The translations under genes were made by a program, and so were the position numbers. From an uncultured Verrucomicrobia subdivision 3 bacterium (GTDB taxonomy: Bacteria > Verrucomicrobiota > Verrucomicrobiia > Limisphaerales > UBA11358), in NCBI GenBank assembly GCA_903884535.1, contig CAISEZ010000067.1, positions 358 to 64,357 of the forward strand: a DNA stretch of 64,000 nucleotides. The letters run 5' to 3'. The notes under the pieces were generated by a model that was given only the letters and a program-made list of their open reading frames with translations, had not been told where the DNA came from and did not search any database. Below are positions 23,699 to 47,223 of this stretch, piece by piece (within the stretch, counting starts at the first letter, position 1; each line of letters opens with the position of its first letter).

Positions 23699-23767
23699 GG
23701 TGGCACCCGGCATCAATCGGCCCAAATCATGCCCGGCAAGTTTGAGCGGACTCACGTCCGCTGCTAC
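23699..23767. repeat. diverged second copy of the tilS-type palindromic element, between convergent larE and the zinc-ribbon gene
   Basis: The right arm gagcggactcacgtccgctgctac (23744-23767) is identical over 24 nt to 8961-8984. The left arm ggtggcacccggcatcaatcggccc resembles ggtggcagccgacgtgagtcggctc. Confidence 0.55.
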
Positions 23768-23973
23768 GAGGTCGGTGGCTTTTCCTGAAGGCGACGGAGC
23801 TGGTTTTCCAATTGCGTGACGCGGCTGCTGAGGCGCTCTAAAATTTTCCGGGTTTCGACAGGTATGACGACGCAGTCCTCACAATGATGGCGCGTCGCGG
23901 CACTGCCCTTGACGGGATATTCAAATTTCTTACCGCAGGCGCGGCAGGTGCGGGGACGTTCTCCGGAAGGCAT
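23764..23973 (-). CDS. small zinc-ribbon protein with C-terminal coiled-coil
   Basis: A 69-aa protein with two Cys pairs, CRACGKKF...HHCEDC, followed by the helical tail ILERLSSRVTQLENQLRRLQE. It is the last gene of the minus-strand redox operon. Confidence 0.45.
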   Translation of the reverse strand: MPSGERPRTCRACGKKFEYPVKGSAATRHHCEDCVVIPVETRKILERLSSRVTQLENQLRRLQEKPPTS

Positions 23974-23988
23974 CTTCGTAAAAGGTTT

Positions 23989-26594: not shown

Positions 26595-26615
26595 TTTAAT
26601 CGTTAGCTAATCTAT

Positions 26616-27803: not shown

Positions 27804-27859
27804 ACCAGACGGGCTGGCAGCGAATAGATTTCAAGCCATATCTTCCCGCAGTTCCGCAA

Positions 27860-29803: not shown

Positions 29804-29947
29804 CGTGGATTCAAGGACGGCGACCGGATCGAGCCGCGTCACTGCCGAATTTACCACACCCATGTCTGGAACCATATTCATTTTCTACTGCCATCGTAGC
29901 CGGAAGCCGGATCAGCGGATAGTCGGATAAAGTGTGGACAAGCCGGA

Positions 29948-32900: not shown

Positions 32901-32983
32901 GCCACTTGAGCGCGCCCGAACTGCAAAGCAAAAACCAATGGCAACAAAAGCAAAAAAATCAAATATCTAAAGCGAACGGGCAT
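29948..32983 (-). CDS. sensor histidine kinase with periplasmic beta-propeller (Reg_prop repeats) and Y_Y_Y domain
   Basis: A signal or TM segment, then many repeats of the DGxLWVGTxxGL type, then Y_Y_Y-like FRYRLENYDEKW and a TM helix. The HisKA_3 H-box is ARDMHDEVGAKLTRL and the HATPase motif is DDGAGF...GGNGLGNMKERL. Confidence 0.9.
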   Translation of the reverse strand: MPVRFRYLIFLLLLPLVFALQFGRAQVATDTSHWSFRAWQTEDGLPDNSVTGVAQTADGYLWVATYGGLMRFNGTSFSAVPLPSLLKKSVRAMLIDPHGNFWLGMDSGAVICLEANKVRTFGTADGLSAERITSMALDREGAIWIISSGALCRIKNDKVSRFSTSEGLPAGVNAWVCSDANGELWLSKGGQVGVFRDGRFQQKLSFNETSVRILGAANSGLWLCVGSSLLKYEENQTPLALARFTNNVEPQVLFETRAGALWIGTAADGLFRFKAGVLEKVPTSHQSVNCVSEDREGNIWAGTRGGGLNFIRSSAVKLIGRDAGLPFESVASVCQDTEGVMWVASQSGTLSKLQNGKWEIFGADAGWTNDAATCVAADKKGGVWVGARNRTLNFFHNGVWQSWQRTNNLRGGAVHLIFVAANDDVWVVTGSPSRIQRLRDGKLADPLPLPGVNHTIRAMTESDDGTLWVGTLEGQVLRVEDSSLVVETAVMQENSSPVRALETTADGALWVGYAGAGIGRLQAGKMTRITEADGLMDDFASQLLADRSGNLWIVGNRGVFQVQSNELAAVAGGRPGKLRSQVFGRNEGLPNFQPNTSSFPNVCKADDGRLWFALRSGLLTVQPENIRANPAPPPVVVERAQVDDQTAALYAGGSPVQTEDGTGLPDLRQADAVLHIPPGHRKVEFEFAALSFASPENVRFRYRLENYDEKWLDAGKAERSARYPHLLAGDYRFRVLACNNAGVWNDTGAVVAIVVAPFFWQEWWFRALVLLAFTASVVAIVRYVSFRRLRLRMLRLEQQSALERERARIARDMHDEVGAKLTRLSLLSEMAGGNPDLPATASGDVKEISDTARETIRSFEEVVWAVNPRNDTLADLVNYLCRYAEDYFDGSLVRCVFDLPPEMPNCGLPTEVRHQVFLAAKEAFTNVLKHANARRVRVQLALAGNEFKIIIEDDGAGFDVAAPPKRAGGGNGLGNMKERLRSVGGQVECTSTPGQGTRIVFQAPRNPEAAP

Positions 32984-33086: not shown

Positions 33087-34511
33087 TTATCGCGCGGTCA
33101 CTACATGACTGTCGGCAATAGATTTTGAGGACTTCACATAATCCACGGTCATATTTTGAGGAGTGACAGTGACCCGCACATGGCCCGAGTTGCCGCGAAA
33201 CACGCCCTGTTTATAGCCATAATTTTGCAAATCGCGGATGCGGTCGTCGCCGGCGAAGCTCGGTTGCGGCACCATCAGATACAAAATGCCGTCGAGTTCC
33301 TGTCGCGCGTAGAAATTGTCGTGCGCCCGGAAAACCGCGGTGACGTGGTTTTGCAAAAGCAATTTGTGAACCGGCATCGGCCAGCCGGGGCGATGCTGCG
33401 CGAAGCCCTCGCTGCTGTCAGAGTTTTTTCCGCCCCATTCATTGAACCCGGCAATTTCGACGCCGCCGCGTGAAGCCTGATCGCCGGCAAGCAGGTTGTG
33501 AATGAAAATGAATTTGTATTTCGCCGGGCTGCCCGCAAGTGTTTTTGCAAGCCAGTCGTATTGCTCGCGGCCGAGCGACCACGCCCAGCCGTCGCTGGTG
33601 CGCCCGCCCGAACGGAGTGAATAACGATACGGATCAAGCACCACGAACAGCGCATCGCCCCACGTCCACGAATAATAATTTTCCAGCAAGCCGCTCGGCG
33701 GTTTGGGAATGGAATCGCCAGAATAAAAACCATCAGGCACGGGATTCGGAAAATATTTTTTGCGGAGCGCGTTGGACCAGACGGCAAGGTCGTCGGGCGA
33801 ATCGTCGTCATAGCGGCTGCTTTCGCCGTCATGCACGCCCAGCGCAAGAAACAGCGGCGCACCGATCTGGCCGAGATAAAACCGCTGCGCGAAATATTGT
33901 CGTGCCGCCTCGTCGCGCGTGGCATGCTTGTCGGTCATAAACAGATTGCCGAGATCAATGTGAAAATCCGGCGCATCGGCGCGGATGTTGGCGAGCGATT
34001 GCTCATACACTTGCGCACTGGTGTGTTCGTCCAGGTGCACATCGGCAGTCATCGTGAACGTGAAACTACTTCCCGCCGGTCGCGCGGTGTGGAAAGAAAA
34101 TTCTGTGCGGTCTTTGAACTGTGCCGCACCAACTGCCCGCGAATGGAATTGGAAAATATATTTCGTATCCGCTTGCAATGAACCGATGACGAATACAAAT
34201 GGCACGCCCGCCTTGAGTTGGCGCGTCGCCGTTTGATTGGTGCCAGCGCCGGGTTGCATCCGATATGTCACAAAACCTTCCAGGTCGTGATATGCCAGCG
34301 CGCTCAACGTCACCGAATTATTTTCCGGTCGCGCGAGAATAAAATCGTAATCATGCGCGGGCACGGCGACGTTGAAAACATTGGCGCCCGATTGTGCGCG
34401 ATGCCCATGCGCCAGCTTGATGTCATTGGTGGGTGCGCCAAACCCGGACAAAGGAACAAGGCAAAGCAACAGGCGGCAGCTTGTCAAAATTTTATGAATG
34501 TCGGTGATCAC
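33087..34511 (-). CDS. secreted metallophosphoesterase-like protein with degenerate metal-binding motifs (paralog 1)
   Basis: It is clearly homologous to the ORFs at 36330-37880 and 41894-44419 (WTWGDALFVVLDPY, AKYKFIFIH, HRPGWPMPVH, SGHVRVTVTP). The canonical motifs are altered: GD to GN, GNH to GVH, and GHDH to AHDN. Confidence 0.7.
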   Translation of the reverse strand: MITDIHKILTSCRLLLCLVPLSGFGAPTNDIKLAHGHRAQSGANVFNVAVPAHDYDFILARPENNSVTLSALAYHDLEGFVTYRMQPGAGTNQTATRQLKAGVPFVFVIGSLQADTKYIFQFHSRAVGAAQFKDRTEFSFHTARPAGSSFTFTMTADVHLDEHTSAQVYEQSLANIRADAPDFHIDLGNLFMTDKHATRDEAARQYFAQRFYLGQIGAPLFLALGVHDGESSRYDDDSPDDLAVWSNALRKKYFPNPVPDGFYSGDSIPKPPSGLLENYYSWTWGDALFVVLDPYRYSLRSGGRTSDGWAWSLGREQYDWLAKTLAGSPAKYKFIFIHNLLAGDQASRGGVEIAGFNEWGGKNSDSSEGFAQHRPGWPMPVHKLLLQNHVTAVFRAHDNFYARQELDGILYLMVPQPSFAGDDRIRDLQNYGYKQGVFRGNSGHVRVTVTPQNMTVDYVKSSKSIADSHVVTAR

Positions 34512-34558
34512 AATTCGCCGTGGAAAACGTTTTTAAGGAGGATTGGGAACATGGGCAA

Positions 34559-36304
34559 TCAAGGGAGGGCCACGCCAATGCGGTAGAAACGCTGGGAACT
34601 GGCCGTGTTGGTGTCGCCGAGGAAGTCCACGCCACCGCTGCCGGCGAGATTGGTTTGCGTCGAGACCGGATTCCATGCGCCGGCGGTCAGGCTGGTGGCG
34701 TAAAACAGAGAGTATTTCCGGCTGGCCGAGGATTGATAATAGACCTTAATGCCGCCGGCGTTGGTGACGCTTTGAATCTTGAAATACGAAAGCGCATTCG
34801 TGGGATTAGTGTCGGCAACGTATTCGTTAAAATTGCTCACGCCGTCATGATCCGGGTCGCCACCGGCACAAGAGGCGGCGTTCGTCGTGGTGCCGCTACC
34901 ACCGAAGTATTGTCGCCGCCAGCCGTCGGGGATGCCGTCGCCGACGTGATCCACGCTGCTGTAGTTTCCGCCGCGCACCAACCGGACAAAATTAAAACTA
35001 CGAATCGCATCGCCTTGCGGACCGAATGAATATCCCTTGTAAACCACACCATTGTTGGTGACGAAATAAGTGATGGCGGGGAAGCTGTAAGGCGGCCCGG
35101 TCTTTGGATCACTGCGCTGCGCACCGGCACCGTGGACATCCACCCATTTGGGATTGGTGGACGGCCAGCCGAGCGCCCGGCCAAAGGCGACATAGTCTGC
35201 ATCCGTGCCGCCGGTGTTGTTGGTGCTGTAGCCGCCATGAGTGGTGGAAGTCCAGTAATACGGAAAATCCCGCTGCCCGGCCTCGTTGGTGATGACGGAG
35301 CAGGTGAAGTAATTTGTATCAACCGCCGGCAGGCCGTTGTAGTCGGGCGCATTCGAGTAGTTGACGATGCTTTGCAGTTCCTTGACGTTTGGCATTCGCC
35401 AGTCATTGTGACCAAGATACGTTGCGGTGTTCTGCGCCTGCACCCAGGCCAGAGCGTTCGACCAGAGAATGCCCGACGCATTATCAGTTTGCGACCATGT
35501 GAGTCCGGTGGCCACATCGGTAATGGTTCCATCCCCGTTGTTGGTGAAGTTGTTCATACCATAGTTCGTTCCAGCACGGACCAATTGCACATAAAATGTC
35601 TTGAGCGTATGGCTCAAAACATCCGTCTCGTCATAACCCTTGATGCGGCCGTCAGAGAAATTCACGCCGAAATCTTTTTCGAAGCCGGATTCGCTGGGGT
35701 CAAAAATAAACGTGGTGCTCGAAGCATACTGCTGGTCAATCAGCCGTTCGCCGAGAGCAGTGTTGCCATAGGCGAACAGAAAATAGTTCGTGTTGATAAA
35801 CGGCGTCAGGACGGAAGTGTCCGAACCCGTGTAACTGCTCGGATCCGTGCCGCGACAATCAAAGAGCGCATACAATTCCTTGAGCGTCGGCAGCCGCCAG
35901 TCGCTGAAGCCGCCCCAGTTGGTGGCGTTCACTTTCGTGACCCACGCGGGAATGTTGGTAAAAACCATCCGGTCGGTTTTGACGGGCGGCGTGAGCGTGA
36001 GATTCGGGCTGCGCATCCAAGTCAGACCCGTGTTGTTGTCGCGAACCGTCTTGCCATCGCCGCTCAGCGTGTAGCTGGACTGGTTGCCGAAGACCTGACC
36101 GTCCTGACCATAAAACGCCAGCCCCAACAATGGCGCATTGGTGATGCCGCTGGTGCTGTAACAGTTGGTCTGCATGGTATCTACGACGAACCAGGCAGGT
36201 GCGGCGGTGACATTACTGGCAGAACGTCCAACCGTCAGCAGTGCAAAAAAGATGAACCAGTTTTTCACGGCTTGATTCTGCGCGAAGAAACCTTTAGCAG
36301 ACAT
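34559..36304 (-). CDS. secreted DUF1566 (Lcl C-terminal-like) domain protein with FYRI C-terminal module
   Basis: Two DUF1566-type motifs (GLTWMRSP...FSDWRLPTLKELYALF and GLTWSQ...HNDWRMPNVKELQSIV), a GDPDHDGVSNFNEYVADTNPTNA calcium-binding-like linker, and the tail ...SQRFYRIGVALP. The start is set at MSAKGFF (36304). Confidence 0.7.
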   Translation of the reverse strand: MSAKGFFAQNQAVKNWFIFFALLTVGRSASNVTAAPAWFVVDTMQTNCYSTSGITNAPLLGLAFYGQDGQVFGNQSSYTLSGDGKTVRDNNTGLTWMRSPNLTLTPPVKTDRMVFTNIPAWVTKVNATNWGGFSDWRLPTLKELYALFDCRGTDPSSYTGSDTSVLTPFINTNYFLFAYGNTALGERLIDQQYASSTTFIFDPSESGFEKDFGVNFSDGRIKGYDETDVLSHTLKTFYVQLVRAGTNYGMNNFTNNGDGTITDVATGLTWSQTDNASGILWSNALAWVQAQNTATYLGHNDWRMPNVKELQSIVNYSNAPDYNGLPAVDTNYFTCSVITNEAGQRDFPYYWTSTTHGGYSTNNTGGTDADYVAFGRALGWPSTNPKWVDVHGAGAQRSDPKTGPPYSFPAITYFVTNNGVVYKGYSFGPQGDAIRSFNFVRLVRGGNYSSVDHVGDGIPDGWRRQYFGGSGTTTNAASCAGGDPDHDGVSNFNEYVADTNPTNALSYFKIQSVTNAGGIKVYYQSSASRKYSLFYATSLTAGAWNPVSTQTNLAGSGGVDFLGDTNTASSQRFYRIGVALP

Positions 36305-36329
36305 TAAGCCGGAAAATATTTTGCGGCAT

Positions 36330-37880
36330 TTACACATGAAGCACCTTTGCCTTAACGGTGTAACTGTGCGCGATGTCGCCGGTCTTATTCTGTGCCGTTT
36401 CGTCTTTCGGCAAAAAGCTGCGGACGTATTCCACCTTTACACTTTCCGGCGAGACGGTGACGCGCAAGTGACCGGAGTTCGGCAGCTTCACGCCAGATTG
36501 GTAGCGATCCTCATTGTAAGTCATGTAGCCGTGATCGGCCGGCATCGGCACTTCCTGGTAAACTATGCCGTCGCGTTCCTGCCGACAAAAAAGATGGTCG
36601 TGGCCCTGGAAAAAAATCGTGACGCCATGTTTCACCATGAGCTGATGCACCGGCAATTCCCAGCCGGGCCGACGTTCTTTGAATTCGTAGTCGCCGCGAC
36701 GATTTTTGCCGCCCCATTCATACAAATCACATTCGTCCACGCCGCCGCGACCGGTGCCGAGAACGTGATGCGCGAAGACAAATTTATATTTTGCCTTACT
36801 GGTTTCAAGCGTGCGTTTGAACCAATAATATTGCATGTCGCCAAGTGTTAGTTCCCACCAATCGCGTTGCCCGCGTCCAGCTTTGCCGCCGCCCATATCT
36901 TGCTCGCGAAACCCGCTGTCTACCTGCGCCGGGGAATGCCAGTAGTTGTCCAGGATCACAAACAATGCGTCGCCCCACGTCCACGCGCAATAATCTTTGC
37001 GTAGGCCAACCGACGGCAGCGTCTCGGTGTCGCCGGAATAAAACTTGTCCGGCGCCGGCGTGGGATAAAATTGGTTGCGCGCGTTTTGCACGTGAACGGC
37101 GACGGCGTGGCGTTCGTCGGTTTGATTGAAATTAAACAGCGACGCCTGTTCGTGATTTCCATTCAACAGAAACACCGGCGCAGACTGCGCGACGAGACCG
37201 AGAAACGGCCGTTGCAAAGTGTAGCGTTCAGCAACCGACTCAAAATTAACCTCGCGCACCGGCGTGACGCTGAAATCATCGCCCATGCAAATGTAAAAAT
37301 CCGGTTTGTCGGCGGCGGCGTTGAGCAAGGTGCGCGCATACAAGTTTGGTTCGCTCATCTGCGGACGTTCCGGATGCGAGTCGCCCTGAATCGCAAACGT
37401 AAACGTGTTGCCCGCCGCGCGCTGCGTGTGAAAACGGCACTCCGGTCGTGCGATGAAATTCGTTTCGCCCGGCTTGCGAAATTGCAGCCGGTAAAAATAC
37501 TGCGTGTTCGGCTGCAATTTCTCGAAAACGGTTTCGCCCGGTTTGTTCGCCGCAAACGTGAGCATGAAAGTTTTGTTCGAGTAATTCCCGGCCGAAGTTC
37601 CGTATTCAAAAAATCCTTCAATCGTTTCCTTGGCCAGCGAGTTCACAGACACCGCCTGATCGCTCACGCGGCCAAGCACCAGCGACAACCAACTGAACGA
37701 CGCGAGTTCTGGCGGCAGCACATAATCTTGCGCGTCGCGGTGATTGCGACCGCCGCCGCCGCCGCCAACTCTTCGGCGCTGGCCGGGTTCGTTGTTTTGC
37801 GCGGCTAGCGGCAGAGAAAACCACGCGAGCGTTGAAGACAGAAGCAGGAGGAATTTCCTACGATTAGCTGTGAATTTCAT
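36330..37880 (-). CDS. secreted metallophosphoesterase (paralog 2, intact motifs)
   Basis: A signal peptide is followed by GDSH, MGDDF, NGNHE, FAHH and GHDH, the full calcineurin-like phosphoesterase motif set. The start is set at MKFTANRRKF (37880). Confidence 0.75.
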   Translation of the reverse strand: MKFTANRRKFLLLLSSTLAWFSLPLAAQNNEPGQRRRVGGGGGGRNHRDAQDYVLPPELASFSWLSLVLGRVSDQAVSVNSLAKETIEGFFEYGTSAGNYSNKTFMLTFAANKPGETVFEKLQPNTQYFYRLQFRKPGETNFIARPECRFHTQRAAGNTFTFAIQGDSHPERPQMSEPNLYARTLLNAAADKPDFYICMGDDFSVTPVREVNFESVAERYTLQRPFLGLVAQSAPVFLLNGNHEQASLFNFNQTDERHAVAVHVQNARNQFYPTPAPDKFYSGDTETLPSVGLRKDYCAWTWGDALFVILDNYWHSPAQVDSGFREQDMGGGKAGRGQRDWWELTLGDMQYYWFKRTLETSKAKYKFVFAHHVLGTGRGGVDECDLYEWGGKNRRGDYEFKERRPGWELPVHQLMVKHGVTIFFQGHDHLFCRQERDGIVYQEVPMPADHGYMTYNEDRYQSGVKLPNSGHLRVTVSPESVKVEYVRSFLPKDETAQNKTGDIAHSYTVKAKVLHV

Positions 37881-37893
37881 GATTTCCTTTTGG

Positions 37894-40800
37894 TTAGCGG
37901 TGTGCGTTGATTCGGTAAAACAGATTGGTTCCACCGGCGGTGCCAGTAGGCAGCACTGAATTAGTGATGCTGGTGGGTGGCGGGTTGGTGAAGATGGCAG
38001 TCCATTGAGGTGCCGGAAGCGTCGGCGAACATTCGAGGTATTGCCAGGCGTTGACGCCGCCGATCCAAGTGAGGTTTACATTGGTGCCGACGACGTTGAG
38101 ATTGATGAAGGCTAAACGGGAAGCGGCATTCGTCGGATTGAGGTCGGCGGTGTAATTTTGCAGCGTCGTGTTGCCGTTCGAGTTGATGAGACTCGCGACG
38201 GACGCGAGCGTGGGATCGAAGCCGTATTTGATGGCCCAACCGTCGGGAATACCGTCGTTGGCGGAAGACCACACGTTCGGATCGAGGCCGTATTGAAATT
38301 CTTGAATATCCGTCAGCCCGTTGCCCGAATGACTGCTCGTGGCGGTGACGGCGGAGAGAGTGCCGAAGTGTGCGCGCACCCAGATGTCGGGCAGACCGAG
38401 GCCGACCGTGTCGGTCGCCGCGCCGTTGTAAGTTTCAATCGTGCCGCGCGGCGTCAAATCCTTGCCGGTGAAGCCGGAAAAATTCGTCGCGTAACGATGG
38501 ACTTTGAAAACTTCATTGAGCGTCTGTAGTGGAAAATTCGTGTTGCTGTTCGGATCGAATGGAATGGTGCTGCCCTGGGCCAGCGGAGTGGTGGTCACAG
38601 GACTGATGTATTTCCAAATGGTTTGCGAATTACTGGTGACTTCAAACAGCGTGCCGCGAATGCCAAAAGTGATGAGCGTGTCGCCGTTGGGTTCGCGTTC
38701 CACGCCGCCGATGTCCGCACCATAAAAATTCGTCGCCGGATTGTTGGTGTATTGCCAGAAATAACTCGTCGGCCCGAAATAGGTGTTGCCGACACGTGAA
38801 TAAAAACCATTCGCGTCCACCGGCGGCGCAATTTCATCAATCGAAGTGTAAGCCGGATTGGCGCGGTTGATTCCGTTGTCGTGAATGAGAATATGGCCCG
38901 CACCGGGACAATTGGTCGGAATCCAAATGGCGCAGTGCTGTTGCCAGAGCATTTCTTTGTGCGTCGCGTCGGTGAGATTGTTGACGGCCGGATTGCCCCA
39001 GCGATAAAGCAAGTCACCACCTTTGCCGTAGCGACCACCGGTATGGCCGGCAGCTTGCGCGGTCGTCGTGCTGTGGTCAATTACCCAAATTTCGCATTGA
39101 TTGCGCGAGCTGATGAGGATTTGGTCAAGCTGCGGGTTGTAATCAATGCCGTTAAAATGATTCCAGAACTGTTGGAGCGGGCCGCTATTGGCGTTGATTA
39201 GCTCTACGTGATTGCTGACCACGCCGTAGTTGGATTTGGTCACGTCATTTTGTTGGACGAGGTGATCCCAGACGTGCCACTGCCAGACAATCGTGCCGTT
39301 GGTCGTGCCGTCCTTCGCGGCGGGCTGCACTTCAACAATGGCGTCGGGCAGCAAGTAACCGCCGTTGGTGGTCACGCTAACTTGCGTCTGCGAATTCGTC
39401 TGAAAACCGGCGGCGAGAACTTCCGCCAAAGGCTTCTCCTCACACATAATCATCAGCACATTGCCGTTGGGCAAAAGCGCGATGTCGTGATGGCTGAGGT
39501 TCGTGATGGTGTTCTGTTCATAGCACCAGACCAGATTATTTTGCCAGTCGCGCTCTTCCAACCGACCGCCCTCCCCGCCGCCGGTGTTGAGCAGCGATTG
39601 CGAGCCGAGCGAACAAGTCCGCAGCAAATGGCCGTTGGGCATGAGATATTCCGAGCGGCCGGGGTTGTAAGTGGTCGTCCACTGGTGAACATACTGACCG
39701 GTGTTGTTGATCAGGTAAGTGGTGTCGGCCTGCATCGGCGAGAACAGCGTGTAACCCGGCTGCGCAGTCGCGAGGTTGGTGAACAGACCCACCGTCTGCG
39801 TCAGTTTTTCCTGACGCATCACCCGGAAGCCCGTTTGACTCCACTGACCGTAAGGATCGCCGGGCGGACCGCCGCCGAGAAAATACGACGGATCACGATT
39901 GGAAACCCGCGCGTGGCCGTAGTCGAAGTCGCTCGCCGAATTGCCGTTCCACCAAGTGCCCCCACGCAGGCAGCGGTAGGGCGAGCCGTTGAAATAATCA
40001 TTGGTGGTCAAAATGGAAAGCACCGGACCGGGTGGATTGGTGACAATGTTGTTGTTCGTGCAATAGGCGTAGTAATTGTTCATATACCAGTCGTTGCACC
40101 ACTCCCACACATTACCGCCCATGTCGTAGATGCCGTAGGGATTCGAGCCGTCGCTGGTCTGATAAGTCGTCTGGCTGCCGGGCCAGTTGTAATTCGTCGT
40201 GTAACGCAGCGCACCGTTGTAAAAGCCCACCGGTGTCGTGCAGGGATAATCGTTCGTCGTTTCAAACGGGTCGCCGGAATTTTCCCAGTTCGCATAGGAG
40301 CCGTCGGCGTTGGTATTCATGCCCCACGGGAACATGACGTAGGGATTGGTCTGCCCGCCGTGGGCGGCGTATTCCCACTCGGCTTCGGTTGGTAAGCGCC
40401 AGCCATTCGCGCTGATATCCACATCGCCGTTGGTAAGATTGTAACACGCGTTGAAACCATTCGTCTGGCTCAACCAATTGCAATACGCAATCGCGCCGAA
40501 CCACCGCACGCTCGTGACCGGATGCAAATCGCGGCTGCTTAGCACGACGAACGTTCCGCTCTGATACTGAATGCGGCTCGATGAGGAAGCGTCGTGCGTG
40601 TAAAAATATTCATTCGTGCCGCCGACGGCATAGACGACGTTATTGCTCACCGTGATCAAGCCCCGCGCCAGCGCGGCGTTCAAGTAGTCGCAATACTCAC
40701 GGCAGGTCACGAGCGTCGTGTCCATATAGAGCGGCGAGATGTAAACATTGTGAACCGGCACTTCGTCGGTGTAATGCTTGATGTCAATGTAGTCAAACTG

Positions 40801-41451
40801 GTCGCCCATCAGAAAATTCCCGCCGGGAATCCGCACGTATTGCGCCGTGAATGGAATGATGGCGTTGGAAGTGCCGGTGGTGGTCGTGAGGGCGATTTGG
40901 TCCAGAAAGATCCGGTTGCCGGTATTTCCTTCGCTGAATTCAAAGCGCAAGGTCAAATTGCTGACCAAGTCGCCGGGTTGAAGGTTGTAGGTGTAAAGTT
41001 GCCAGCTTTGGCTTGCGGAAGACTGACCAGAAAGGCGGGTTGTGAAACCCGTTCCAGGATTGATCTGCATCGCCCAACCGGCATTGCTGCTGGTGATATT
41101 GACCTGAAGATAAAACGTCAGCGTGGCGCTGTTGCCGCGAGCATCAATCGGCAACGTCGTGGTGATGGTGCTGTCGGTCAGATTGGTTGTGCCACTCTTG
41201 AACGAAAAACCGTTGGTATTGCCGCTGCCATAATTGGCATTCGGATTTTGCTCGAAGGGATTATTGACACTGAAAGTGACAGCCCAAGGATTATTGCAAC
41301 CCGAACCGGTCCAAGGCTTGACCACATTGGTCGCCATCGTTTCCAAAAAAACCACCGTGTTTGTCGTTGCCGCACTTGCGCTCCACACTCCGACCAATGC
41401 GGCCAGCAACAGCGTCATCCGAAGAAATAACTGATAGCGAATCGTTCTCAT
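37894..41451 (-). CDS. secreted multidomain protein: N-terminal lectin/CBM-like domain, FGE-sulfatase-fold (SUMF1/EgtB/PvdO-like) domain, arylsulfotransferase (ASST)-like beta-propeller, FYRI C-terminal module
   Basis: The FGE-fold segment is VRIPGGNFLMGD...RWFGAIAYCNWLS...GWRLPTEAEWEYAAHGG...GNVWEWCNDWY...RCLRGGTWWN...GFRVMR. The ASST-like segment is GYTLFSP...TYLINNTGQYVHQW...HHDIALLPNGNVLMI...DLLYRWGNP. An IPDGWAIKYGFDP linker precedes the tail ...NLFYRINAHR. Confidence 0.75.
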   Translation of the reverse strand: MRTIRYQLFLRMTLLLAALVGVWSASAATTNTVVFLETMATNVVKPWTGSGCNNPWAVTFSVNNPFEQNPNANYGSGNTNGFSFKSGTTNLTDSTITTTLPIDARGNSATLTFYLQVNITSSNAGWAMQINPGTGFTTRLSGQSSASQSWQLYTYNLQPGDLVSNLTLRFEFSEGNTGNRIFLDQIALTTTTGTSNAIIPFTAQYVRIPGGNFLMGDQFDYIDIKHYTDEVPVHNVYISPLYMDTTLVTCREYCDYLNAALARGLITVSNNVVYAVGGTNEYFYTHDASSSSRIQYQSGTFVVLSSRDLHPVTSVRWFGAIAYCNWLSQTNGFNACYNLTNGDVDISANGWRLPTEAEWEYAAHGGQTNPYVMFPWGMNTNADGSYANWENSGDPFETTNDYPCTTPVGFYNGALRYTTNYNWPGSQTTYQTSDGSNPYGIYDMGGNVWEWCNDWYMNNYYAYCTNNNIVTNPPGPVLSILTTNDYFNGSPYRCLRGGTWWNGNSASDFDYGHARVSNRDPSYFLGGGPPGDPYGQWSQTGFRVMRQEKLTQTVGLFTNLATAQPGYTLFSPMQADTTYLINNTGQYVHQWTTTYNPGRSEYLMPNGHLLRTCSLGSQSLLNTGGGEGGRLEERDWQNNLVWCYEQNTITNLSHHDIALLPNGNVLMIMCEEKPLAEVLAAGFQTNSQTQVSVTTNGGYLLPDAIVEVQPAAKDGTTNGTIVWQWHVWDHLVQQNDVTKSNYGVVSNHVELINANSGPLQQFWNHFNGIDYNPQLDQILISSRNQCEIWVIDHSTTTAQAAGHTGGRYGKGGDLLYRWGNPAVNNLTDATHKEMLWQQHCAIWIPTNCPGAGHILIHDNGINRANPAYTSIDEIAPPVDANGFYSRVGNTYFGPTSYFWQYTNNPATNFYGADIGGVEREPNGDTLITFGIRGTLFEVTSNSQTIWKYISPVTTTPLAQGSTIPFDPNSNTNFPLQTLNEVFKVHRYATNFSGFTGKDLTPRGTIETYNGAATDTVGLGLPDIWVRAHFGTLSAVTATSSHSGNGLTDIQEFQYGLDPNVWSSANDGIPDGWAIKYGFDPTLASVASLINSNGNTTLQNYTADLNPTNAASRLAFINLNVVGTNVNLTWIGGVNAWQYLECSPTLPAPQWTAIFTNPPPTSITNSVLPTGTAGGTNLFYRINAHR

Positions 41452-41456
41452 GGCGG

Positions 41457-41843
41457 TTAAGCAGGCAGGCCGTCTTTCTTCCCCACCAACGCCTCCAGCT
41501 TTTGTTCAGCAATTTCCATGTCAGACAATTTCGGGGCAGCAGCAGTGACTGTTTCCGGTTCGGTTGGCTGGACCACCGGCAACACCGGTTGACTAATTTT
41601 GCCAGTCTCCGGATATGCCATGCGGATCAACCAATTTCCGCGTAGCAGCCAAATGGCAACGGTCAGCGTAAAGGCAACCGGTAGGAAATTGGTTACGATG
41701 TTGATGAGCGGCGTGCTACGTGCCTGCGCCAGCACCATGAAGCTTTGCACGACGAGATCTTTCAGGCCGATGCAAAGGAAAAATAATCCAGTGAGCCGCA
41801 CCGCCAGCCGGAATATTTCCTTGTAGATATTTGTCTCTTTCAT
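41457..41843 (-). CDS. hypothetical small membrane protein
   Basis: A 128-aa ORF (MKETNIYKEIF...) with two hydrophobic helices and an acidic/coiled tail. It fills the gap between two large secreted-protein genes. The longer 354-aa ORF in the track overlaps the upstream gene and is rejected. Confidence 0.4.
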   Translation of the reverse strand: MKETNIYKEIFRLAVRLTGLFFLCIGLKDLVVQSFMVLAQARSTPLINIVTNFLPVAFTLTVAIWLLRGNWLIRMAYPETGKISQPVLPVVQPTEPETVTAAAPKLSDMEIAEQKLEALVGKKDGLPA

Positions 41844-41893
41844 GTTATTTGCTCTTTCTGTTTTGGTTGTTCTTTTCGGAATCATTGTTTTGC

Positions 41894-44419
41894 TTACCAC
41901 ATTAGCCGATAAAATTTCTTTGGCTGGCTTGAGACCGGATTGGTGTCGGTCCAGGTGTTGGTTTGTCCCACATTGAGATTGGTCCAAGTCATCAGCTCGA
42001 AGGACCACTGAACACAGTAGTTCAGCCCTGATTGTCCCGACCATTGCAAGATCATGTTGTTCGTGGCGATGGCACCATTGAGCAGGCCGTTTGCAGGAAT
42101 GTTGTAGCTGTAGCTGACCATCCGATTGGTGATGCCGGGGCCGGGCGAGGCCGGCGGATAGGCCGAAGAATACGAGCGCACATACTCCACCGTGACGATG
42201 ACTGGTGAGACGGTGACCCGCAAATGACCGGAGCTGCCAAAGAAAACGCCGCCTTGATAGTTGTATCCAAAGTTGGTGCCCGTGGCATAACTGTAGGAGT
42301 CGTAAGGGTAATGACTCGGTTGCGGAGTCTCCTGATAGATCAAATCTGGGCTGCCGTTGGTCGCGCCGCTGGCGTAGTAATCCTGTTTGCAAAAAAGATG
42401 GTCGTGACCGTGGAAAAATATTTGCGCGTGATTGGTCAACAGCAAGGCGCGGATCGGCATCGGCCAGCCCGGACGATGCGACGCAAAACCCGGCGTGCCG
42501 TTGGTATTCAGACCACCCCATTCAAAGTAAGGCGAAAACTCCAGCCCGCCGCGCGCCTGAGTGTCCCAACTGCCACCAATCAAGTGGTGAGCGAAAACAA
42601 ATTTGTATTTGGCCGTGCTGTTTTCCAGCGTGGACTTGAGCCAATAGTATTGATTCGTGCCGAGCGTCCACGCCCATGGGTCACTGGATTTGGTAACGCC
42701 TTGGTTGCTATACCAGAACGGGTCGAGCATCACGAACAGTGCGTCACCCCATTCAAAGGCGTAATACGCATCACGCGGTCGCTGCTGGTAATTGTCCACG
42801 CTGGTCGCACCTGAATAGAACCCACCGGGAATCGGGCACGCATAATATTGCTCCCGCGCGGTCGCGCCCCAAACCGGCGAGCAGTCATGTGGAGCACTGT
42901 TGCTCAACATCCAGCCCAGCTCGGGATCATGATTTCCGTTCACCAGAAACAGCGGCACTGAGTGGCCGATGATGCTGAAATATCTAGCCCGCGCATCGGC
43001 ACAATCAAAATTGAGGCTCGGCTGGGTCAGCGCATTGGTAATGCCGTAGTAATTATACAGCTTTTCACCCATGAACGTGTCGCCGAGGTCCACAAAGAAA
43101 TCCGGCTGATCGTTTAGAACATTGGTGTAGGTCTGCTTCCAAACGGCATCCACCGTTCCCCCGCTGCTAAGGCCGAAATCGCCATAATGCGGGTCCGCAT
43201 CAATGTCGAAAGTAAAGGTGCTGCCCCGTGCCCGCTGGGTGACAAAAGTGTGTTCCGCTCCGGTGTTGAATGAAGTCCCATTGTTGGTCGAGTAACACAT
43301 CCGGTAGAAATACCGTTGATTACGCTGAAGCTGGTCAATCATCAGCGGCGTTGGCACACCGTTGGTAATGGAAATGGTCGCGCTCAGGCCGGTGTAATAT
43401 CCCGATTGCGTGCCGTATTGGAAATACACTTGAAGATTTTGATTCGCGAGCACGCTCACGGCAATTGAAGTGTCCGTTGGCCGTCCCAGCATCAAATCAT
43501 AGCTCACAGCGGGTTGAACCGTGTAGCTGTAAGTTGAATTTGGCGCAGTCACCGGATTTGTCGCCGACAGGCTGGCAACGTCTGTGGCCGTCAGGAAATA
43601 ATTCACGGTCGTGCCGGAGGAAAATGCCGGAATTTGCCCGCCATAAATTCCGTCATCCGGGGCGCTGTCATGGTGCAGACCGTCGTCGAACATCACCACA
43701 TTCGTCCAACTGTCGCCACCGGTCGTCCCCACCACTGAAATCTGGTCTAGTAGAATCTTGTTCGTGTTTCCGCCGCCGGCAAACTCAAAGCGCAATTGAA
43801 GATTGGAAACCAATTCCGCAGAATGCAGATTATAATGGTAAAGCTGCCAGTTGTGAACAGAACCGGTCAGGTCGCTCATGCGGGTGACGAAGCCAGAACC
43901 AACGTTCAGTTGCATGGCCCAGCCGGTGTTGGTGATCAAATTTGCCGTCTTGATATAAAACTCGATGAATCCCGAATTTCCTTTGGCGTTGATACCGTTT
44001 CCGGTCGTGATGGTGCTGTCAGTGAGATTGACCGTTCCTCTGGTGAATTGTAATACGCAGGGATTGCCGCCGTAGTTTAAATTCGTGACCTGCGAGAACG
44101 GGTTTGTGCCGTTGTAGCCGACCGTCCATGGATTGTCGCAGCCCGACCCAGTCCACGGACTGAGGCCGCTCGCATTGGTGTCCATAGTTTCAAGAAAGAC
44201 GGTGTTGCTGAGAATCGGCGTCTCACTGGTAGTATAAGCCAGCGTTACGGATGCCAGGCTCACCGTATCTGTCACGCCCGCCGTGACCCAAACCGAATTG
44301 CCCTCAATCGCAACCGGGTTCGTCACGCTGAAAATTGCCGGCAATCCGTCGGCCATCGCCTGGCGGCTGACGGCAAGGACAAACGCCAGAGCAATAAACT
44401 TACGCAAGTAACTATTCAT
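41894..44419 (-). CDS. secreted metallophosphoesterase (paralog 3) with N-terminal lectin/CBM-like domain and FYRL C-terminal module
   Basis: The motif set ADPH, LGDTF, NGNHD, FAHH and GHDH is intact. The N-terminal ~150-aa domain is homologous to that of 37894-41451 (FLETM..PWTGSGC.NPW...NLTDSTITT...GWAMQ.N.G.GF.TR......WQLY.YNL...LVSNL.LRFEF). The tail is ...KKFYRLMW. Confidence 0.75.
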   Translation of the reverse strand: MNSYLRKFIALAFVLAVSRQAMADGLPAIFSVTNPVAIEGNSVWVTAGVTDTVSLASVTLAYTTSETPILSNTVFLETMDTNASGLSPWTGSGCDNPWTVGYNGTNPFSQVTNLNYGGNPCVLQFTRGTVNLTDSTITTGNGINAKGNSGFIEFYIKTANLITNTGWAMQLNVGSGFVTRMSDLTGSVHNWQLYHYNLHSAELVSNLQLRFEFAGGGNTNKILLDQISVVGTTGGDSWTNVVMFDDGLHHDSAPDDGIYGGQIPAFSSGTTVNYFLTATDVASLSATNPVTAPNSTYSYTVQPAVSYDLMLGRPTDTSIAVSVLANQNLQVYFQYGTQSGYYTGLSATISITNGVPTPLMIDQLQRNQRYFYRMCYSTNNGTSFNTGAEHTFVTQRARGSTFTFDIDADPHYGDFGLSSGGTVDAVWKQTYTNVLNDQPDFFVDLGDTFMGEKLYNYYGITNALTQPSLNFDCADARARYFSIIGHSVPLFLVNGNHDPELGWMLSNSAPHDCSPVWGATAREQYYACPIPGGFYSGATSVDNYQQRPRDAYYAFEWGDALFVMLDPFWYSNQGVTKSSDPWAWTLGTNQYYWLKSTLENSTAKYKFVFAHHLIGGSWDTQARGGLEFSPYFEWGGLNTNGTPGFASHRPGWPMPIRALLLTNHAQIFFHGHDHLFCKQDYYASGATNGSPDLIYQETPQPSHYPYDSYSYATGTNFGYNYQGGVFFGSSGHLRVTVSPVIVTVEYVRSYSSAYPPASPGPGITNRMVSYSYNIPANGLLNGAIATNNMILQWSGQSGLNYCVQWSFELMTWTNLNVGQTNTWTDTNPVSSQPKKFYRLMW

Positions 44420-44443: not shown

Positions 44444-46039
44444 TCAGTCGCCCTGGCCAACTGGTCGTTGATTTCCACTTTCGCGCTCGATGAAGACAGT
44501 CCGGTCGTAAGTAAACTTCAATTGCGCGCTGTCGAGCACGAGATCTTTCATGGCGGTGAGCAAAACGTTGCGATTGACCGCCGCCGGCGGCAAGGAAATT
44601 TCCACCGGCGCAGACAGCGCATAAACCGTGATGAAATACGTCTTCGCGCCCGGCCCTTTTGAGTGCGGCGGCGCGTAACCGAGACTGCGATTCACGCTGT
44701 TGTTCCCCGCGACGCCGATGCCGGTGGCGTTTTTTGGCAAGCTGTGAATGTCTGCAGGAATATTGTAGAGCGTCCAATACCACTTCACATCGCCCGGCCC
44801 GGGAAAATGATCCATGATGATGGCAAAATATTTTGTGCTGGCGGGCGCGCCACTCCACACGAGCGGTGGCGATGCGCTCGCACCATCGCCGGTGAATTCC
44901 ACCGGCAGCGAGCCGCCATTGGTGACCACACTGCTCGTCAAAATCAAATTTCCGCTGCGCTTCACGTTGATCATGACCGGCGCAACCGCGCCGCCGCGCG
45001 AATTTTCGAGACGCGAGCCGCGCTGATTTTCCGGCGGCGGATTGTCGCGCGGCGGCGGCCCGCCATTTCTACCGCCCGCACGATAAGTGGCTTCGCGCGT
45101 GGTGCCGTCGGCGTTGGAAAATTTAAATTTCCAAACTCCCGGGCCGACACTGGCGTAATTCACCGCCGCCGGCTGGCCGTTCACCGTATATTGCAAAGCA
45201 AACGTGTTCTCTTCCGGTGAATTGGTGAACGCGGTGATCTTCGCGCCGCGCAACGGCGGCTGGGCCGGGCGGATCGGCTGCGCGTGTGGCTGTGGATCAA
45301 CCTGCTCGTTCAACTCGACGACTTCGCCGTGAAAACCGCCCATGACATACGGATAACTCGTCGAGGCGTGATAGTGATAACCGAGCGCGACGGTTTCGTG
45401 TCCGTGAAATGCATCCAGACCCACCGGTGCAGCGCCGTCCAGTTCGGTCAGACCATAAATCGGATAGCCGTCGAGCGCGTAAGCGATGGGCAGATTTTTT
45501 CCGACGACGTTTTGCAACACGAGCGGCGCGACATGGTAATGATAATCATCCGCGCGTCCGCAATGTCCGCCCCACAAATCCAGTTCGCCGATCTCCTTGG
45601 AAATTTCGCCGCGATTGTTTTGCGGGTTGAAAATCGGAATGCCGTCCGCGCCGACTGCAATCGCGCCGCGCAAAAAATCATTTTTGATGCTGCGCGGATT
45701 TTTCGCCGGCACCGGATGCAGTGGAATCGCCCACGCATTCTCGCCGAAATACGGCTGCGGCAGCGGCACCTGCTGCTGCCAGGACGTGATGCCCACCATC
45801 ATGCCGTGGTCGGGCAAGCCGTTGTTCAGGACGTAAAGATATTTGTCATCCCAGGTCACCTTCAGGCGCGGCGCGAATTTCAAAAACGGCGCAGCCTGCG
45901 GCGGTGGATTGTTTGTGCCGCCGGACAGGCCCCGTCCGTTGCGGCTGCCAAACCAATCGGGCGCATTCGGCGCGGTGGTTTGTGCAAAAACTGCCGTGGC
46001 GGCCAAAATAATTTGGAGTTGTGGAATTATTTTTTTCAT
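44444..46039 (-). CDS. secreted YHYH-domain protein fused to a YbhB/YbcL (PEBP) family domain
   Basis: A signal peptide is followed by two YHYH motifs (CGRADDYHYHVAP and VALGYHYHAS). The C-terminal PEBP-like segment is PPLVWSGAPASTKYFAIIMDH...YWTLYNIP...YAPPHSKGPGAKTYFITVYAL. Confidence 0.75.
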   Translation of the reverse strand: MKKIIPQLQIILAATAVFAQTTAPNAPDWFGSRNGRGLSGGTNNPPPQAAPFLKFAPRLKVTWDDKYLYVLNNGLPDHGMMVGITSWQQQVPLPQPYFGENAWAIPLHPVPAKNPRSIKNDFLRGAIAVGADGIPIFNPQNNRGEISKEIGELDLWGGHCGRADDYHYHVAPLVLQNVVGKNLPIAYALDGYPIYGLTELDGAAPVGLDAFHGHETVALGYHYHASTSYPYVMGGFHGEVVELNEQVDPQPHAQPIRPAQPPLRGAKITAFTNSPEENTFALQYTVNGQPAAVNYASVGPGVWKFKFSNADGTTREATYRAGGRNGGPPPRDNPPPENQRGSRLENSRGGAVAPVMINVKRSGNLILTSSVVTNGGSLPVEFTGDGASASPPLVWSGAPASTKYFAIIMDHFPGPGDVKWYWTLYNIPADIHSLPKNATGIGVAGNNSVNRSLGYAPPHSKGPGAKTYFITVYALSAPVEISLPPAAVNRNVLLTAMKDLVLDSAQLKFTYDRTVFIERESGNQRPVGQGD

Positions 46040-47223
46040 CGGGTAAAGAATTGTTCATGCACCGCCACGAAGAGGTAATAAGCACCGCAAACAGAAATGG
46101 CCGACGCGCTGTAACGCAGCAACGCCGCACGACCTTGGTCCGACATTTTGTAACGGCTCAAAGCCAGCAGACCGAACAGCGGCAGCACCACCAACTGATG
46201 ACCGGCTTCCACACCGAGACTGAACGCACCCAATGCAATCCAGGTGCCGATGGCCGGCAAACCCGCCATCGCATCGAGCAAGCCGCCCGCAAAGCCAAGC
46301 CCGTGAATCAGGCCGAAACCGAACGCCACCGCCAGCCGAATTCGCGAACGCGCGCGCGCCGGCCAGAGGAGATTTTCCAGCGCGACGAACACGATGCTCA
46401 ACGCAATTACCGGCTCGACAATAAACGCTGGCAGTCGAAAAATGCCAAAGACGCACAGCGCCAGAGTCAGCGTGTGTGCAAAAGTAAATGCCGCGATGAC
46501 CTTGACCATTGCCCAAAAGGTTCTAGTGGCGATGACCAATGCGGAAATGAACAATAGATGGTCCCAACCGGTAAGGATATGCCTGCCGCCGTGCCAGAAA
46601 AATTCGCAAAACGTGCGCCAGCTCTGCGGTTGCGCGACGGCCTCCGATAACCTCGCCGATATTTCCAAGCCGGTCGGAATGATCGCCGGCTTTTGGCAAC
46701 CGAGCAGCCAAGTGGTCGCAGCTTCGTCGCCCGCGCGTTTTGCCCGGACGACATAGCTCACATCCCAGGCGGTGCCAGCGGCATAGGAATGTTCTTTGAG
46801 CATTTCATTTATGATGGTCACTTCGCCGGGCGGCGGGCGGCTCAGCGGATATTCCAATTCAAACTGGTAAAAAGTTTCTTCAGGCTCAGCAAGCGCAGGC
46901 GGGTATGTCAGCTTGATGCCGGTTCCCGCCAAAATATTTGGGCCAACAGAAAAGGTCAGATGTTTCAAAACATATTCACCGTGCTGCTCAAGCGCGCGAT
47001 TCAGAATCGCCGGCTCCAGGTTGGTGGTGGAACCGGCTGGAAGATTTTGCGCCACACAGATTTCTTTCAACGAAACATTCACGGCGACACGCATCAGCGA
47101 CGGCTCGAACTGAATCCACATCGCATCCTGCAAAATCGGATGGGCTGGCGCTGCGAGCACGCATCCAATCCAGATGAGGCAACGAAACAAGCGGGCTTTC
47201 ACGCAGAAAAAATACCTCGGCAA
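46036..47223 (-). CDS. HupE/UreJ_2-type membrane protein with N-terminal periplasmic domain
   Basis: The C-terminal half has HupE/UreJ-like TM helices (GGRHILTGWDHLLFISALV...AFTFAHTLTLAL...FGLIHGLGFAGGL...GVEAGHQLVVL). Its stop overlaps the start of the downstream YHYH gene as ATGA. Confidence 0.75.
   Translation of the reverse strand: MPRYFFCVKARLFRCLIWIGCVLAAPAHPILQDAMWIQFEPSLMRVAVNVSLKEICVAQNLPAGSTTNLEPAILNRALEQHGEYVLKHLTFSVGPNILAGTGIKLTYPPALAEPEETFYQFELEYPLSRPPPGEVTIINEMLKEHSYAAGTAWDVSYVVRAKRAGDEAATTWLLGCQKPAIIPTGLEISARLSEAVAQPQSWRTFCEFFWHGGRHILTGWDHLLFISALVIATRTFWAMVKVIAAFTFAHTLTLALCVFGIFRLPAFIVEPVIALSIVFVALENLLWPARARSRIRLAVAFGFGLIHGLGFAGGLLDAMAGLPAIGTWIALGAFSLGVEAGHQLVVLPLFGLLALSRYKMSDQGRAALLRYSASAISVCGAYYLFVAVHEQFFTR

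Follow-up and report, generated by a model that had tools for sequence, protein, structure and literature searches.

A candidate exported cassette for phosphate and sulfate esters in a lake-water Verrucomicrobia subdivision 3 bacterium

The 64,000-nucleotide stretch of contig CAISEZ010000067.1 analyzed here (hereafter the window) derives from an uncultured Verrucomicrobia subdivision 3 bacterium and contains, between positions 33087 and 44419, six minus-strand genes for three metallophosphoesterases (MPEs), a DUF1566 protein, a fusion protein with FGE-like and arylsulfotransferase (ASST)-like domains, and a small membrane protein. These genes, together with two upstream genes for a HupE/UreJ-type permease and a YHYH-PEBP protein, are best explained as a copy of a cassette that forms a self-contained, widely distributed, and exported unit processing the phosphate and sulfate esters of a presumed substrate. 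We assign this explanation a probability of about 0.5. It is carried by the grouping of the protein families in distant phyla, by intact active-site motifs in two MPEs and in the ASST-like propeller, and by export signals. The window belongs to a scaffold from a lake-water metagenome (ENA ERZ18668215), its nearest relatives are metagenome-assembled genomes labeled Verrucomicrobia subdivision 3, and the public DNA runs that contain its sequence are lake metagenomes only.

Gene content of the locus

The six genes are given below in the order of transcription.

41894-44419, minus strand: MPE_F, a metallophosphoesterase (ORFs and public gene calls; Pfam PhoD and Metallophos)
41457-41843, minus strand: small membrane protein of 128 amino acids with two transmembrane segments (public gene call; hydropathy)
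37894-41451, minus strand: fusion protein of 1185 amino acids (Pfam FGE-sulfatase and Arylsulfotrans)
36330-37880, minus strand: MPE_C (Metallophos; start at the ATG of the public gene call)
34559-36304, minus strand: DUF1566 protein (Pfam Lcl_C)
33087-34511, minus strand: MPE_A (Metallophos just under the Pfam cut-off)

From MPE_F to MPE_A, the genes are separated by 50, 5, 13, 25, and 47 nucleotides. An earlier note on this DNA, made from the sequence alone, had described six tightly packed minus-strand genes with gaps of 5-50 nucleotides, which agrees with the open reading frames (ORFs) and with public gene calls, and its list of three paralogous MPEs, a DUF1566 protein, a lectin/FGE/ASST fusion, and a small membrane protein is matched by Pfam and by alignments.

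The small membrane protein has two hydrophobic segments; L001 and L161 (L-numbers denote loci related to the one studied here) also have it among their called genes, and RNA contigs cover its gene. A 354-amino acid ORF at 41457-42521 was rejected as an out-of-frame artifact over MPE_F, since gene calls and RNA contigs back only its last 128 codons, which encode the small membrane protein. The latter has no Pfam match and no homolog in the more distant loci, and it was therefore not retained as a conserved cassette component beyond close relatives.

Co-occurrence of the cassette across phyla

A scan with the fusion protein, taking one genome per species, delivered 79 loci, in which the window proteins were placed by tblastn. 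As the ORF caller errs on some high-GC loci (e.g., L030 and L056), the counts rest on tblastn. An MPE was found within 10 kb in 18 of the 31 loci that combine FGE and ASST, versus a single one of the 48 single-domain loci (Fisher p=1e-8), and DUF1566 and YHYH/PEBP are enriched at FGE+ASST loci in the same manner. The MPE-bearing loci span the Verrucomicrobiota, Lentisphaerota, Bacteroidota, Ignavibacteriota, Myxococcota, Chloroflexota (Dehalococcoidales), and Planctomycetota. MPEs group with FGE+ASST more than by chance, and the cassette is present in at least seven phyla.

Physical fusions link the same families. Metallophos, DUF1566, FGE, and ASST are joined in a single 2055-residue protein (P0044), many homologs carry DUF1566 fused to FGE(-ASST), and L003, an 82% relative, encodes a sulfatase-Ig-MPE_F fusion of 1200 amino acids at 13565-17167. 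The flanks of the cassette, on the other hand, differ from genome to genome and include McrBC, GroEL, alpha-2-macroglobulin, and molybdopterin oxidoreductase. The earlier note had held that a lack of co-occurrence in relatives would speak against a common unit; the families do co-occur far beyond this genome and are linked by fusions. As a separate observation, a 2385-amino acid protein of L014 (6143-13300) comprises three ASST propellers together with DUF1566, FGE, and a CBM-like module.

A second scan, started from an alignment of the MPEs, added 80 further loci (L081-L160) from many more phyla. In these MPE-centered loci, an MPE_C-type gene is usually followed by an A-type paralog and is preceded either by YHYH-PEBP or by an LTXXQ/Metal_resist-like protein of ~425 amino acids with or without PEBP. 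Beside the MPE_C-type genes, PEBP was found in 25 and YHYH in 11 of the 80 loci, and 10-13 of the 80 contain FGE+ASST. Carriers of such loci include the culturable Inhella proteolytica 1Y17 (L136), with the MPE pair, and Victivallis vadensis (L132), with MPE, FGE+ASST, and PEBP. The deepest conserved unit is thus the MPE pair with PEBP, to which FGE, ASST, and DUF1566 are a frequent add-on. Neither the cassette with its domain combination nor the MPE pair was found described in the searchable literature.

The ~425-amino acid LTXXQ-like family is helical, gives weak LTXXQ/Metal_resist matches, is 41-61% identical across phyla, and was observed in 35 loci. Among the upstream partners of the MPE pair it is the most frequent (e.g., L081 8094-9371); the window does not have it and carries a YHYH domain in front of PEBP instead.

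The metallophosphoesterases

The three MPEs are mutually 35-38% identical over ~450 amino acids and all give Pfam Metallophos/PhoD matches, that of MPE_A scoring just under the cut-off. MPE_F consists of a signal peptide, a CBM-like module, an FN3-like domain, the binuclear metallophosphoesterase domain, and a C-terminal domain ending in FYR[LI] (the FYR tail), and MPE_C of a twin-arginine (Tat) signal, an FN3-like domain, and the binuclear metallophosphoesterase domain (Metallophos 3e-8). Among the five metal-binding motifs of the family (DxH, GD, GNH[DE], H, and GHxH), all are intact in MPE_F (ADPH/GDTF/GNHD/AHH/GHDH) and in MPE_C (GDSH/GDDF/GNHE/AHH/GHDH). MPE_A departs from them (ADVH, GNLF, GVHD, IHN, and AHDN), with Asn in place of the bridging Asp, Val in place of the motif III Asn, and Asn in place of the last His.

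The twin-arginine motif of MPE_C is NRRKFL, and RR-x-F is nearly invariant among its orthologs. The structure model of MPE_C (pLDDT 84) gives Foldseek matches to PhoD (2yeq, 7e-20) and to plant purple acid phosphatases and phytases (2e-18 and beyond), and the protein has the PhoD/purple-acid-phosphatase layout of an N-terminal FN3-like domain followed by the MPE fold, with Pur_ac_phosph_N matches in homologs. At the sequence level, the MPE profile has no match to solved PDB structures, and MPE_C alone has only marginal matches to purple acid phosphatases (E 0.0024 and worse). Purple acid phosphatases carry a Tyr in motif II (GDxxY), exemplified by Y220 of Rv2577, and this Tyr is absent from both intact MPEs (GDDFS in MPE_C and GDTFM in MPE_F). 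By its modeled fold, MPE_C is PhoD/purple-acid-phosphatase-like, and it lacks the purple-acid-phosphatase Tyr. The earlier view of these proteins as phosphoesterases is in line with this resemblance to secreted PhoD and purple acid phosphatases and with the intact motifs of MPE_C and MPE_F.

Like Bacillus subtilis PhoD (PDB 2YEQ) and Rv2577/MapH of Mycobacterium tuberculosis (a cell-wall phosphatase and phosphodiesterase with a Tat-signal/FN3/MPE layout), MPE_C combines a Tat-type signal, an N-terminal FN3-like domain, and a binuclear MPE domain. It differs from PhoD in that it carries the canonical MPE motifs instead of the PhoD Fe/Ca site and has no sequence match to a solved structure at E<0.001, and from both PhoD and Rv2577 in that it is paired with an A-type gene and a PEBP partner.

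The degenerate A-type motifs (GNLF, GVHD, and AHDN) are shared by the window's gene and 10 loci of Verrucomicrobiota (L003, L081-L085, L087, L090, L093, and L097) at identities as low as 65%, and an intact MPE_C-type gene accompanies them in the locus. Because these changes recur across loci, MPE_A is to be regarded as a maintained altered paralog and not as a decaying gene, and it may be a pseudo-enzyme subunit partnering MPE_C. A hint in the earlier note that not every MPE is intact is hereby borne out. The lineage of the window has gained a third, F-type MPE, and its A-type copy has lost three metal ligands.

The MPEs could also be explained by plain phosphorus scavenging, in which the MPE pair and PEBP would act as a secreted alkaline phosphatase/phosphodiesterase like PhoD or Rv2577 and ASST, FGE, and DUF1566 would be passengers. 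The best matches of MPE_C (PhoD and purple acid phytases), its Tat signal as in PhoD and Rv2577, the lake-water source with the genes appearing in lake metatranscriptomes, and the fact that the MPE pair is far commoner than its link to FGE+ASST are all compatible with this explanation. The kinases adjacent to the cassettes, however, are without a PAS domain and match PhoR less well than they match metal sensors, pst/pho genes are not found nearby, and one polypeptide unites MPE, DUF1566, FGE, and ASST. As the conserved degenerate MPE_A is also hard to account for by scavenging alone, we consider this explanation distinctly unlikely.

The fusion protein

The fusion protein can be divided into four parts, all encoded on the minus strand.

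40873..41352, minus strand: residues 34-193, CBM-like beta-sandwich module, common to MPE_F
39817..40854, minus strand: residues 200-545, FGE-like domain with a C-type-lectin-like fold (Pfam FGE-sulfatase)
38422..39810, minus strand: residues 548-1010, ASST-type beta-propeller (Pfam Arylsulfotrans 1.5e-16; H839 codon at 38935-38937)
37894..38421, minus strand: residues 1011-1185, Asp-rich calcium-binding-like linker and FYR tail domain (sequence; alignment of the five FYR tails of the window)

In the sequence alignment, the N-terminal module is 54% identical to residues 74-234 of MPE_F; it is modeled with a pLDDT of ~70-84 over residues 50-190, and its Foldseek match is a CBM (3jxs). Residues 1011-1185 were modeled with low confidence except for the last ~70 amino acids.

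The FGE-like domain has the FGE-sulfatase fold according to Pfam (PF03781, 3.3e-41, 142 bits), and its PDB sequence matches include FGEs (4e-13 and better), PorK, and PvdO. In true FGEs, the catalytic Cys pair sits after the RGGS motif. In the window's domain, the segment after RGG is RGGTWWNGNSASDFDYGHARVSNRD, with zero Cys, and the catalytic, copper-binding Cys pair that would follow RGGS is absent (post-RGG sequence TWWNGNSASDFDYGHARVSNRD); the HMMER alignments to FGE structures end before this segment. Since both catalytic Cys are missing, the domain is taken as a non-maturase, and a catalytic FGE (sulfatase maturase) role was rejected. The domain is probably a binding module. It shares its Pfam family and PDB matches with FGE and with the non-catalytic PorK/GldK and PvdO, and in its lack of Cys it is closer to binding or scaffold relatives (PorK/GldK) than to a sulfatase maturase.

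The third part belongs to the six-bladed beta-propellers of the Arylsulfotrans fold (Pfam PF05935, 60.9 bits versus a cut-off of 24.2), a family that comprises 5785 clusters at 50% identity. Cpz4 and AssT lead its Foldseek matches (E 2e-13 to 1e-9), in a region where the model confidence is moderate. The ASST domain alone has no direct PDB sequence match; a profile of its homologs finds Escherichia coli AssT (3elq). In AssT, His436 is transiently sulfated and the sulfuryl group is bound by His252, His356, Asn358, Arg374, and Thr501 (PMC13426309). When the homolog profile was aligned with 3elq, H356/N358/R374/H436 of AssT corresponded to H765/N767/R783/H839. The position of His436 was mapped to an invariant QQH motif (H839) in alignments to both 3elq and the H436N mutant 4p04, and HHD654-656, H765, N767, R783, and H839 are invariant in 45 homologs. 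AssT His252 falls outside the aligned stretch, and its counterpart probably lies within the invariant HHD654-656. According to these alignments, the propeller retains the catalytic His as well as the sulfuryl-binding residues H765/N767/R783, and the earlier designation as an ASST-like propeller is thereby strengthened through the conservation of catalytic residues relative to AssT.

The ASST domain has in common with E. coli AssT (PDB 3ELQ) and Streptomyces Cpz4 (PDB 9KF4/9KF6) the beta-propeller, the Arylsulfotrans family, and the extracytoplasmic location. It is only ~12-14% identical to them and lacks the N-terminal beta-sandwich of AssT, and, unlike AssT and Cpz4, it shares its polypeptide with CBM-like and FGE-like modules and a tail domain. 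Moreover, it is encoded among phosphoesterases, whereas the context of the AssT/Cpz4 type is a dsbL/dsbI neighborhood or an antibiotic cluster. A recent review (PMC13426309) describes as still unknown what bacterial aryl sulfotransferases act on in nature and which roles they have.

The DUF1566 protein, FYR tails, and export

The DUF1566 protein consists of two Lcl_C modules and an FYR tail (Pfam Lcl_C 1.8e-40 in two stretches) and has no PDB sequence match. In many cassettes, DUF1566 adjoins FGE or is fused to it. The only characterized member of the family is the C-terminal domain of Legionella Lcl, which is C-type-lectin-like and binds sulfated glycosaminoglycans. The window's protein resembles Lcl in its Lcl_C domain and in being secreted or surface-located; it differs in that it has no collagen-like stalk and combines two modules with an FYR tail, and its glycan binding is putative. 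As a side observation, the protein is 59% identical to homologs from Bacteroidota cassettes (L017, L021, and L022) and 46-49% identical to the Verrucomicrobial ones, a pattern that hints at an exchange of cassette parts between phyla.

All large proteins of the locus carry a hydrophobic, signal-like N-terminal segment. Sorting domains of the type IX secretion system (T9SS) end 10 of 10 cassette proteins scanned in Bacteroidota L021 and Ignavibacteriota L035, namely DUF1566, FGE, both ASST paralogs, both MPEs, and YHYH. The T9SS domains indicate that the system acts at the cell surface or extracellularly. The export of the large proteins, as proposed in the earlier note, is supported by both observations.

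The FYR[LI] tails, which the earlier note had reported on three proteins, were seen on the DUF1566 protein, the fusion protein, and MPE_F (which ends in KKFYRLMW). The same tail of ~70 amino acids also ends two unrelated secreted enzymes of the window, a kumamolisin-like peptidase (9784-12732) and a PL8 lyase (50112-54440). As these carry it too, the tail marks a general secreted class and was rejected as a locus-specific mark. No Pfam or NCBIfam model covers the tail domain, and it gives the impression of a C-terminal domain that this organism uses generally for sorting or anchoring. It resembles the Por_Secre_tail of T9SS cargo in its C-terminal position on the same protein families, and no sequence similarity between the two was found. 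From position only, we infer that the FYR tail may have a sorting or anchoring role akin to that of the T9SS domain. The Verrucomicrobiota are not known to possess a T9SS.

Cassette borders and genomic surroundings

The following neighbors of the six genes lie on the same strand.

47293..48852, minus strand: formylglycine-type sulfatase directly upstream of the HupE gene (Pfam Sulfatase)
46036..47223, minus strand: HupE/UreJ_2-type permease with an N-terminal extracytoplasmic domain of ~200 amino acids (Pfam HupE_UreJ_2 3.8e-35)
44444..46039, minus strand: secreted YHYH-PEBP fusion protein (Pfam YHYH and PBP; PDB PEBP/YbhB matches)
29108..32983, minus strand: propeller/Y_Y_Y histidine kinase and LuxR-type regulator (Pfam), downstream neighbors of the six genes

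The YHYH-PEBP gene overlaps the HupE gene by 4 nucleotides and is separated from MPE_F by 24 nucleotides. The minus-strand genes from 57030 to 23989 form a single co-directional string with short gaps, which makes the borders of 33087-44419 drawn in the earlier note arbitrary. That note had also placed the six genes downstream of the kinase and upstream of the sulfatase/lyase genes. These neighbors are indeed present; as transcription runs from high to low coordinates, their order is the reverse, with the kinase and regulator downstream and the sulfatase/lyase genes upstream.

The closest relative with flanking sequence is L161, whose fusion protein is 89% identical. Its array of MPE_F, small membrane protein, fusion protein, HupE, YHYH-PEBP, MPE_C, and MPE_A forms a compact seven-gene unit that is preceded by a divergent OmpR-type regulator and a HAMP kinase (CopS/CusS-like). 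Compared with L161, HupE and YHYH-PEBP (44444-47223) have moved to the front in the window, the DUF1566 gene lies between MPE_C and MPE_A, and the cognate two-component system is gone; the window thus holds a rearranged copy of the cassette. HupE directly follows the fusion gene in L161 and in a 9.3 kb RNA contig, and it is present in L005, L006, L017, L021, and L087 as well. The HupE/UreJ permease and YHYH-PEBP belong to the cassette, and the unit extends beyond the six genes to which it had been confined. L161 itself (1-23564) is flanked by a type I restriction-modification methylase on one side and a TrwC-type relaxase on the other, which suggests that its cassette lies in or beside a mobile element.

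A 65% ortholog of the upstream sulfatase (47293..48852) sits directly upstream of the fusion gene in L005. The sulfatase is not conserved in most loci; for the present lineage, it may be counted as an accessory of the cassette. The L005 cassette has three sulfatase genes interleaved, and a multicopper oxidase gene lies between its fusion and YHYH genes (13574-15583) as well as at the matching place in L006. With occurrences in these 2 loci only, the oxidase was rejected as a general partner.

The sulfatases and lyases nearby raise the question of whether the six genes are nothing more than a section of the sulfated-polysaccharide array around them (alginate-lyase-like, PL8, GH8, and sulfatases) under the propeller kinase and LuxR regulator. 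The unbroken co-directional string 57030-23989 with its short gaps, in which terminator-like sites are not enriched, the sulfatase directly upstream, the sulfatases interleaved in L005 or fused to MPE_F in L003, and the binding of sulfated glycosaminoglycans by the sole characterized DUF1566 domain would fit such an arrangement. The comparison with other genomes points elsewhere: no homologs of the propeller kinase, PL8, or GH8 were found beside the cassette in L002-L080, and in L081-L160 PL8 and GH8 are likewise absent and the kinase/regulator query gave only weak two-component matches of 27-35% in three loci. In addition, relatives of 82-89% hold the cassette in quite different surroundings that include mobile-element genes, and the kinase lies downstream of the six genes. 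The linkage to a sensor kinase together with glycan-degrading enzymes and transporters that characterizes polysaccharide utilization loci was not found, and neither SusC/D nor Pst transporters were found beside the Bacteroidota cassettes. Membership in the polysaccharide array is in our view highly improbable.

Further downstream of the kinase and regulator (19392-29086), two aldo-keto reductase paralogs were observed (19392-20753 and 27860-29086, the latter with a twin-arginine-type signal), alongside a DUF6599 protein, a DUF362 protein, a multi-4Fe-4S protein, and a LarC-like nickel-insertion gene (21534-22865).

Regulation and transcription

The earlier note had linked the locus to the propeller/Y_Y_Y kinase and LuxR regulator. 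This link was seen in 0 of ~160 related loci; the relatives use a CopS/CusS-like two-component system or an ECF sigma/anti-sigma/Spy-like trio, and control by the propeller kinase was rejected as a conserved feature because related loci have no such kinase and L161 has a different two-component system. Regulation by the neighboring kinase therefore does not appear to be ancestral. In NCBIfam scans, the kinases adjacent to the cassette in L003, L013, and L161 score best against the heavy-metal sensor subfamily, with 250-284 bits at a cut-off of 292.55, and the regulators in L013 and L161 reach 212-246 bits against the heavy-metal regulator subfamily at a cut-off of 279.2. The cassettes of Bacteroidota and Ignavibacteriota (L017, L018, L021, and L035) are accompanied by an ECF sigma factor, a small membrane protein, and a Metal_resist/LTXXQ protein. 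The regulators and accessory proteins of the relatives suggest metal or envelope stress, or else phenolic substrates, and none of these indications is decisive.

These observations form the starting point for an explanation of the cassette by metal (copper or another cation) or envelope stress, in which the envelope would be protected or remodeled when a periplasmic metal sensor fires. The MPEs would strip metal-binding phosphates off surface polymers, HupE, YHYH, and Spy-like proteins would handle the metal, and the sulfotransferase and, in some genomes, multicopper oxidase would act on phenolic ligands. Besides the best scores of the adjacent two-component systems and the ECF sigma trio, the conserved LTXXQ-like partner (35 loci), the HupE/UreJ permease within the operon, and the multicopper oxidase in L005 and L006 speak for it. 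Every regulator match nevertheless stays under its family cut-off, none of efflux pump, CopC/CopD, CusF, or metallothionein-like gene is conserved, and no efflux or Cop/Cus proteins were seen beside the cassette. The multicopper oxidase occurs in 2 loci only, heavy-metal-type regulators are absent from the window, and nothing known connects ASST or PhoD-like enzymes with metal tolerance. Metal or envelope stress is a fairly unlikely explanation of the cassette as a whole.

None of the RNA runs contains the window organism; lake metatranscriptomes were found to contain a relative that is ~87% identical. A 9.3 kb RNA contig covers the small membrane protein, fusion protein, HupE, YHYH-PEBP, and MPE_C in the order of L161, and shorter RNA contigs from three other runs agree partially with that order, which supports co-transcription of the cassette in a relative. 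Scans for consensus promoters and terminators gave no enrichment and no sites in the gaps and are uninformative on the operon structure.

Proposed function

If the cassette is an exported unit for phosphate and sulfate esters, its proteins would leave the cytoplasm by Sec, and by Tat in the case of MPE_C, and the FYR tail domain, which takes the position of the T9SS sorting domain, would keep them at the surface or release them from it. An anionic glycan or polyphenolic substrate would be bound by the CBM-like, FGE-like, and DUF1566 modules, and the intact MPEs (MPE_C and MPE_F) would hydrolyze its phosphate esters. By way of a sulfo-histidine formed on H839, the ASST propeller would transfer sulfuryl groups from one hydroxyl to another or to water, and the permease and YHYH-PEBP would deal with a metal cofactor or with the anion that is set free. 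The phosphorylated or sulfated polymers or phenolics proposed as substrates in the earlier note are plausible candidates. The sequence data show the gene set and its conservation, the fusions, the state of the catalytic residues, and the export signals of other phyla. The substrate, the direction of sulfuryl transfer, and the roles of MPE_A and of HupE/YHYH/PEBP are, like the regulation, parts of the scheme that we infer.

Several points weigh against this explanation. There is no known substrate, activity, or phenotype for any member, and no phosphate, sulfate, or oligosaccharide transporter is conserved beside the cassette. FGE+ASST accompanies only ~15% of the MPE-pair loci, so that the two halves can work apart. 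With regard to the fusion protein, counterparts of AssT His252 and Thr501 could not be aligned in the ASST domain, and the overall model confidence is only moderate (pLDDT 64). The export signals were judged by eye and hydropathy, and the metatranscriptome libraries and RNA contigs may contain DNA. Finally, the heavy-metal-sensor-like kinase, Metal_resist/LTXXQ, HupE, and the multicopper oxidase (L005/L006) of the relatives point to metal or envelope stress no less than to the processing of nutrients or polymers.

A more specific version of the exported unit is possible, if rather speculative. Here, the cassette would be an ester-exchange system, in which a lectin-targeted sulfotransferase uses environmental aryl sulfates and is combined with paired MPEs (one of them a regulatory pseudo-enzyme) and a metal or envelope-sensor switch. 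The ASST would sulfate or desulfate a surface or dissolved polymer, and the MPEs would strip phosphate from the same substrate.

Significance

An ester-exchange system, if true, would for the first time place environmental ASST-type enzymes and the very widespread PhoD-like/PEBP pair in a physiological setting. The underlying PhoD/purple-acid-phosphatase-like phosphoesterase pair is present in hundreds of species of many phyla while being undescribed in the searchable literature, and MPE_C and MPE_A represent a naturally occurring MPE/pseudo-MPE pair for study. By tying ASST and MPEs to lectin-like modules, a PEBP protein, and a metal permease, the cassette offers a concrete and testable unit, which bears on the processing of organic phosphate and sulfate esters by freshwater and soil bacteria.

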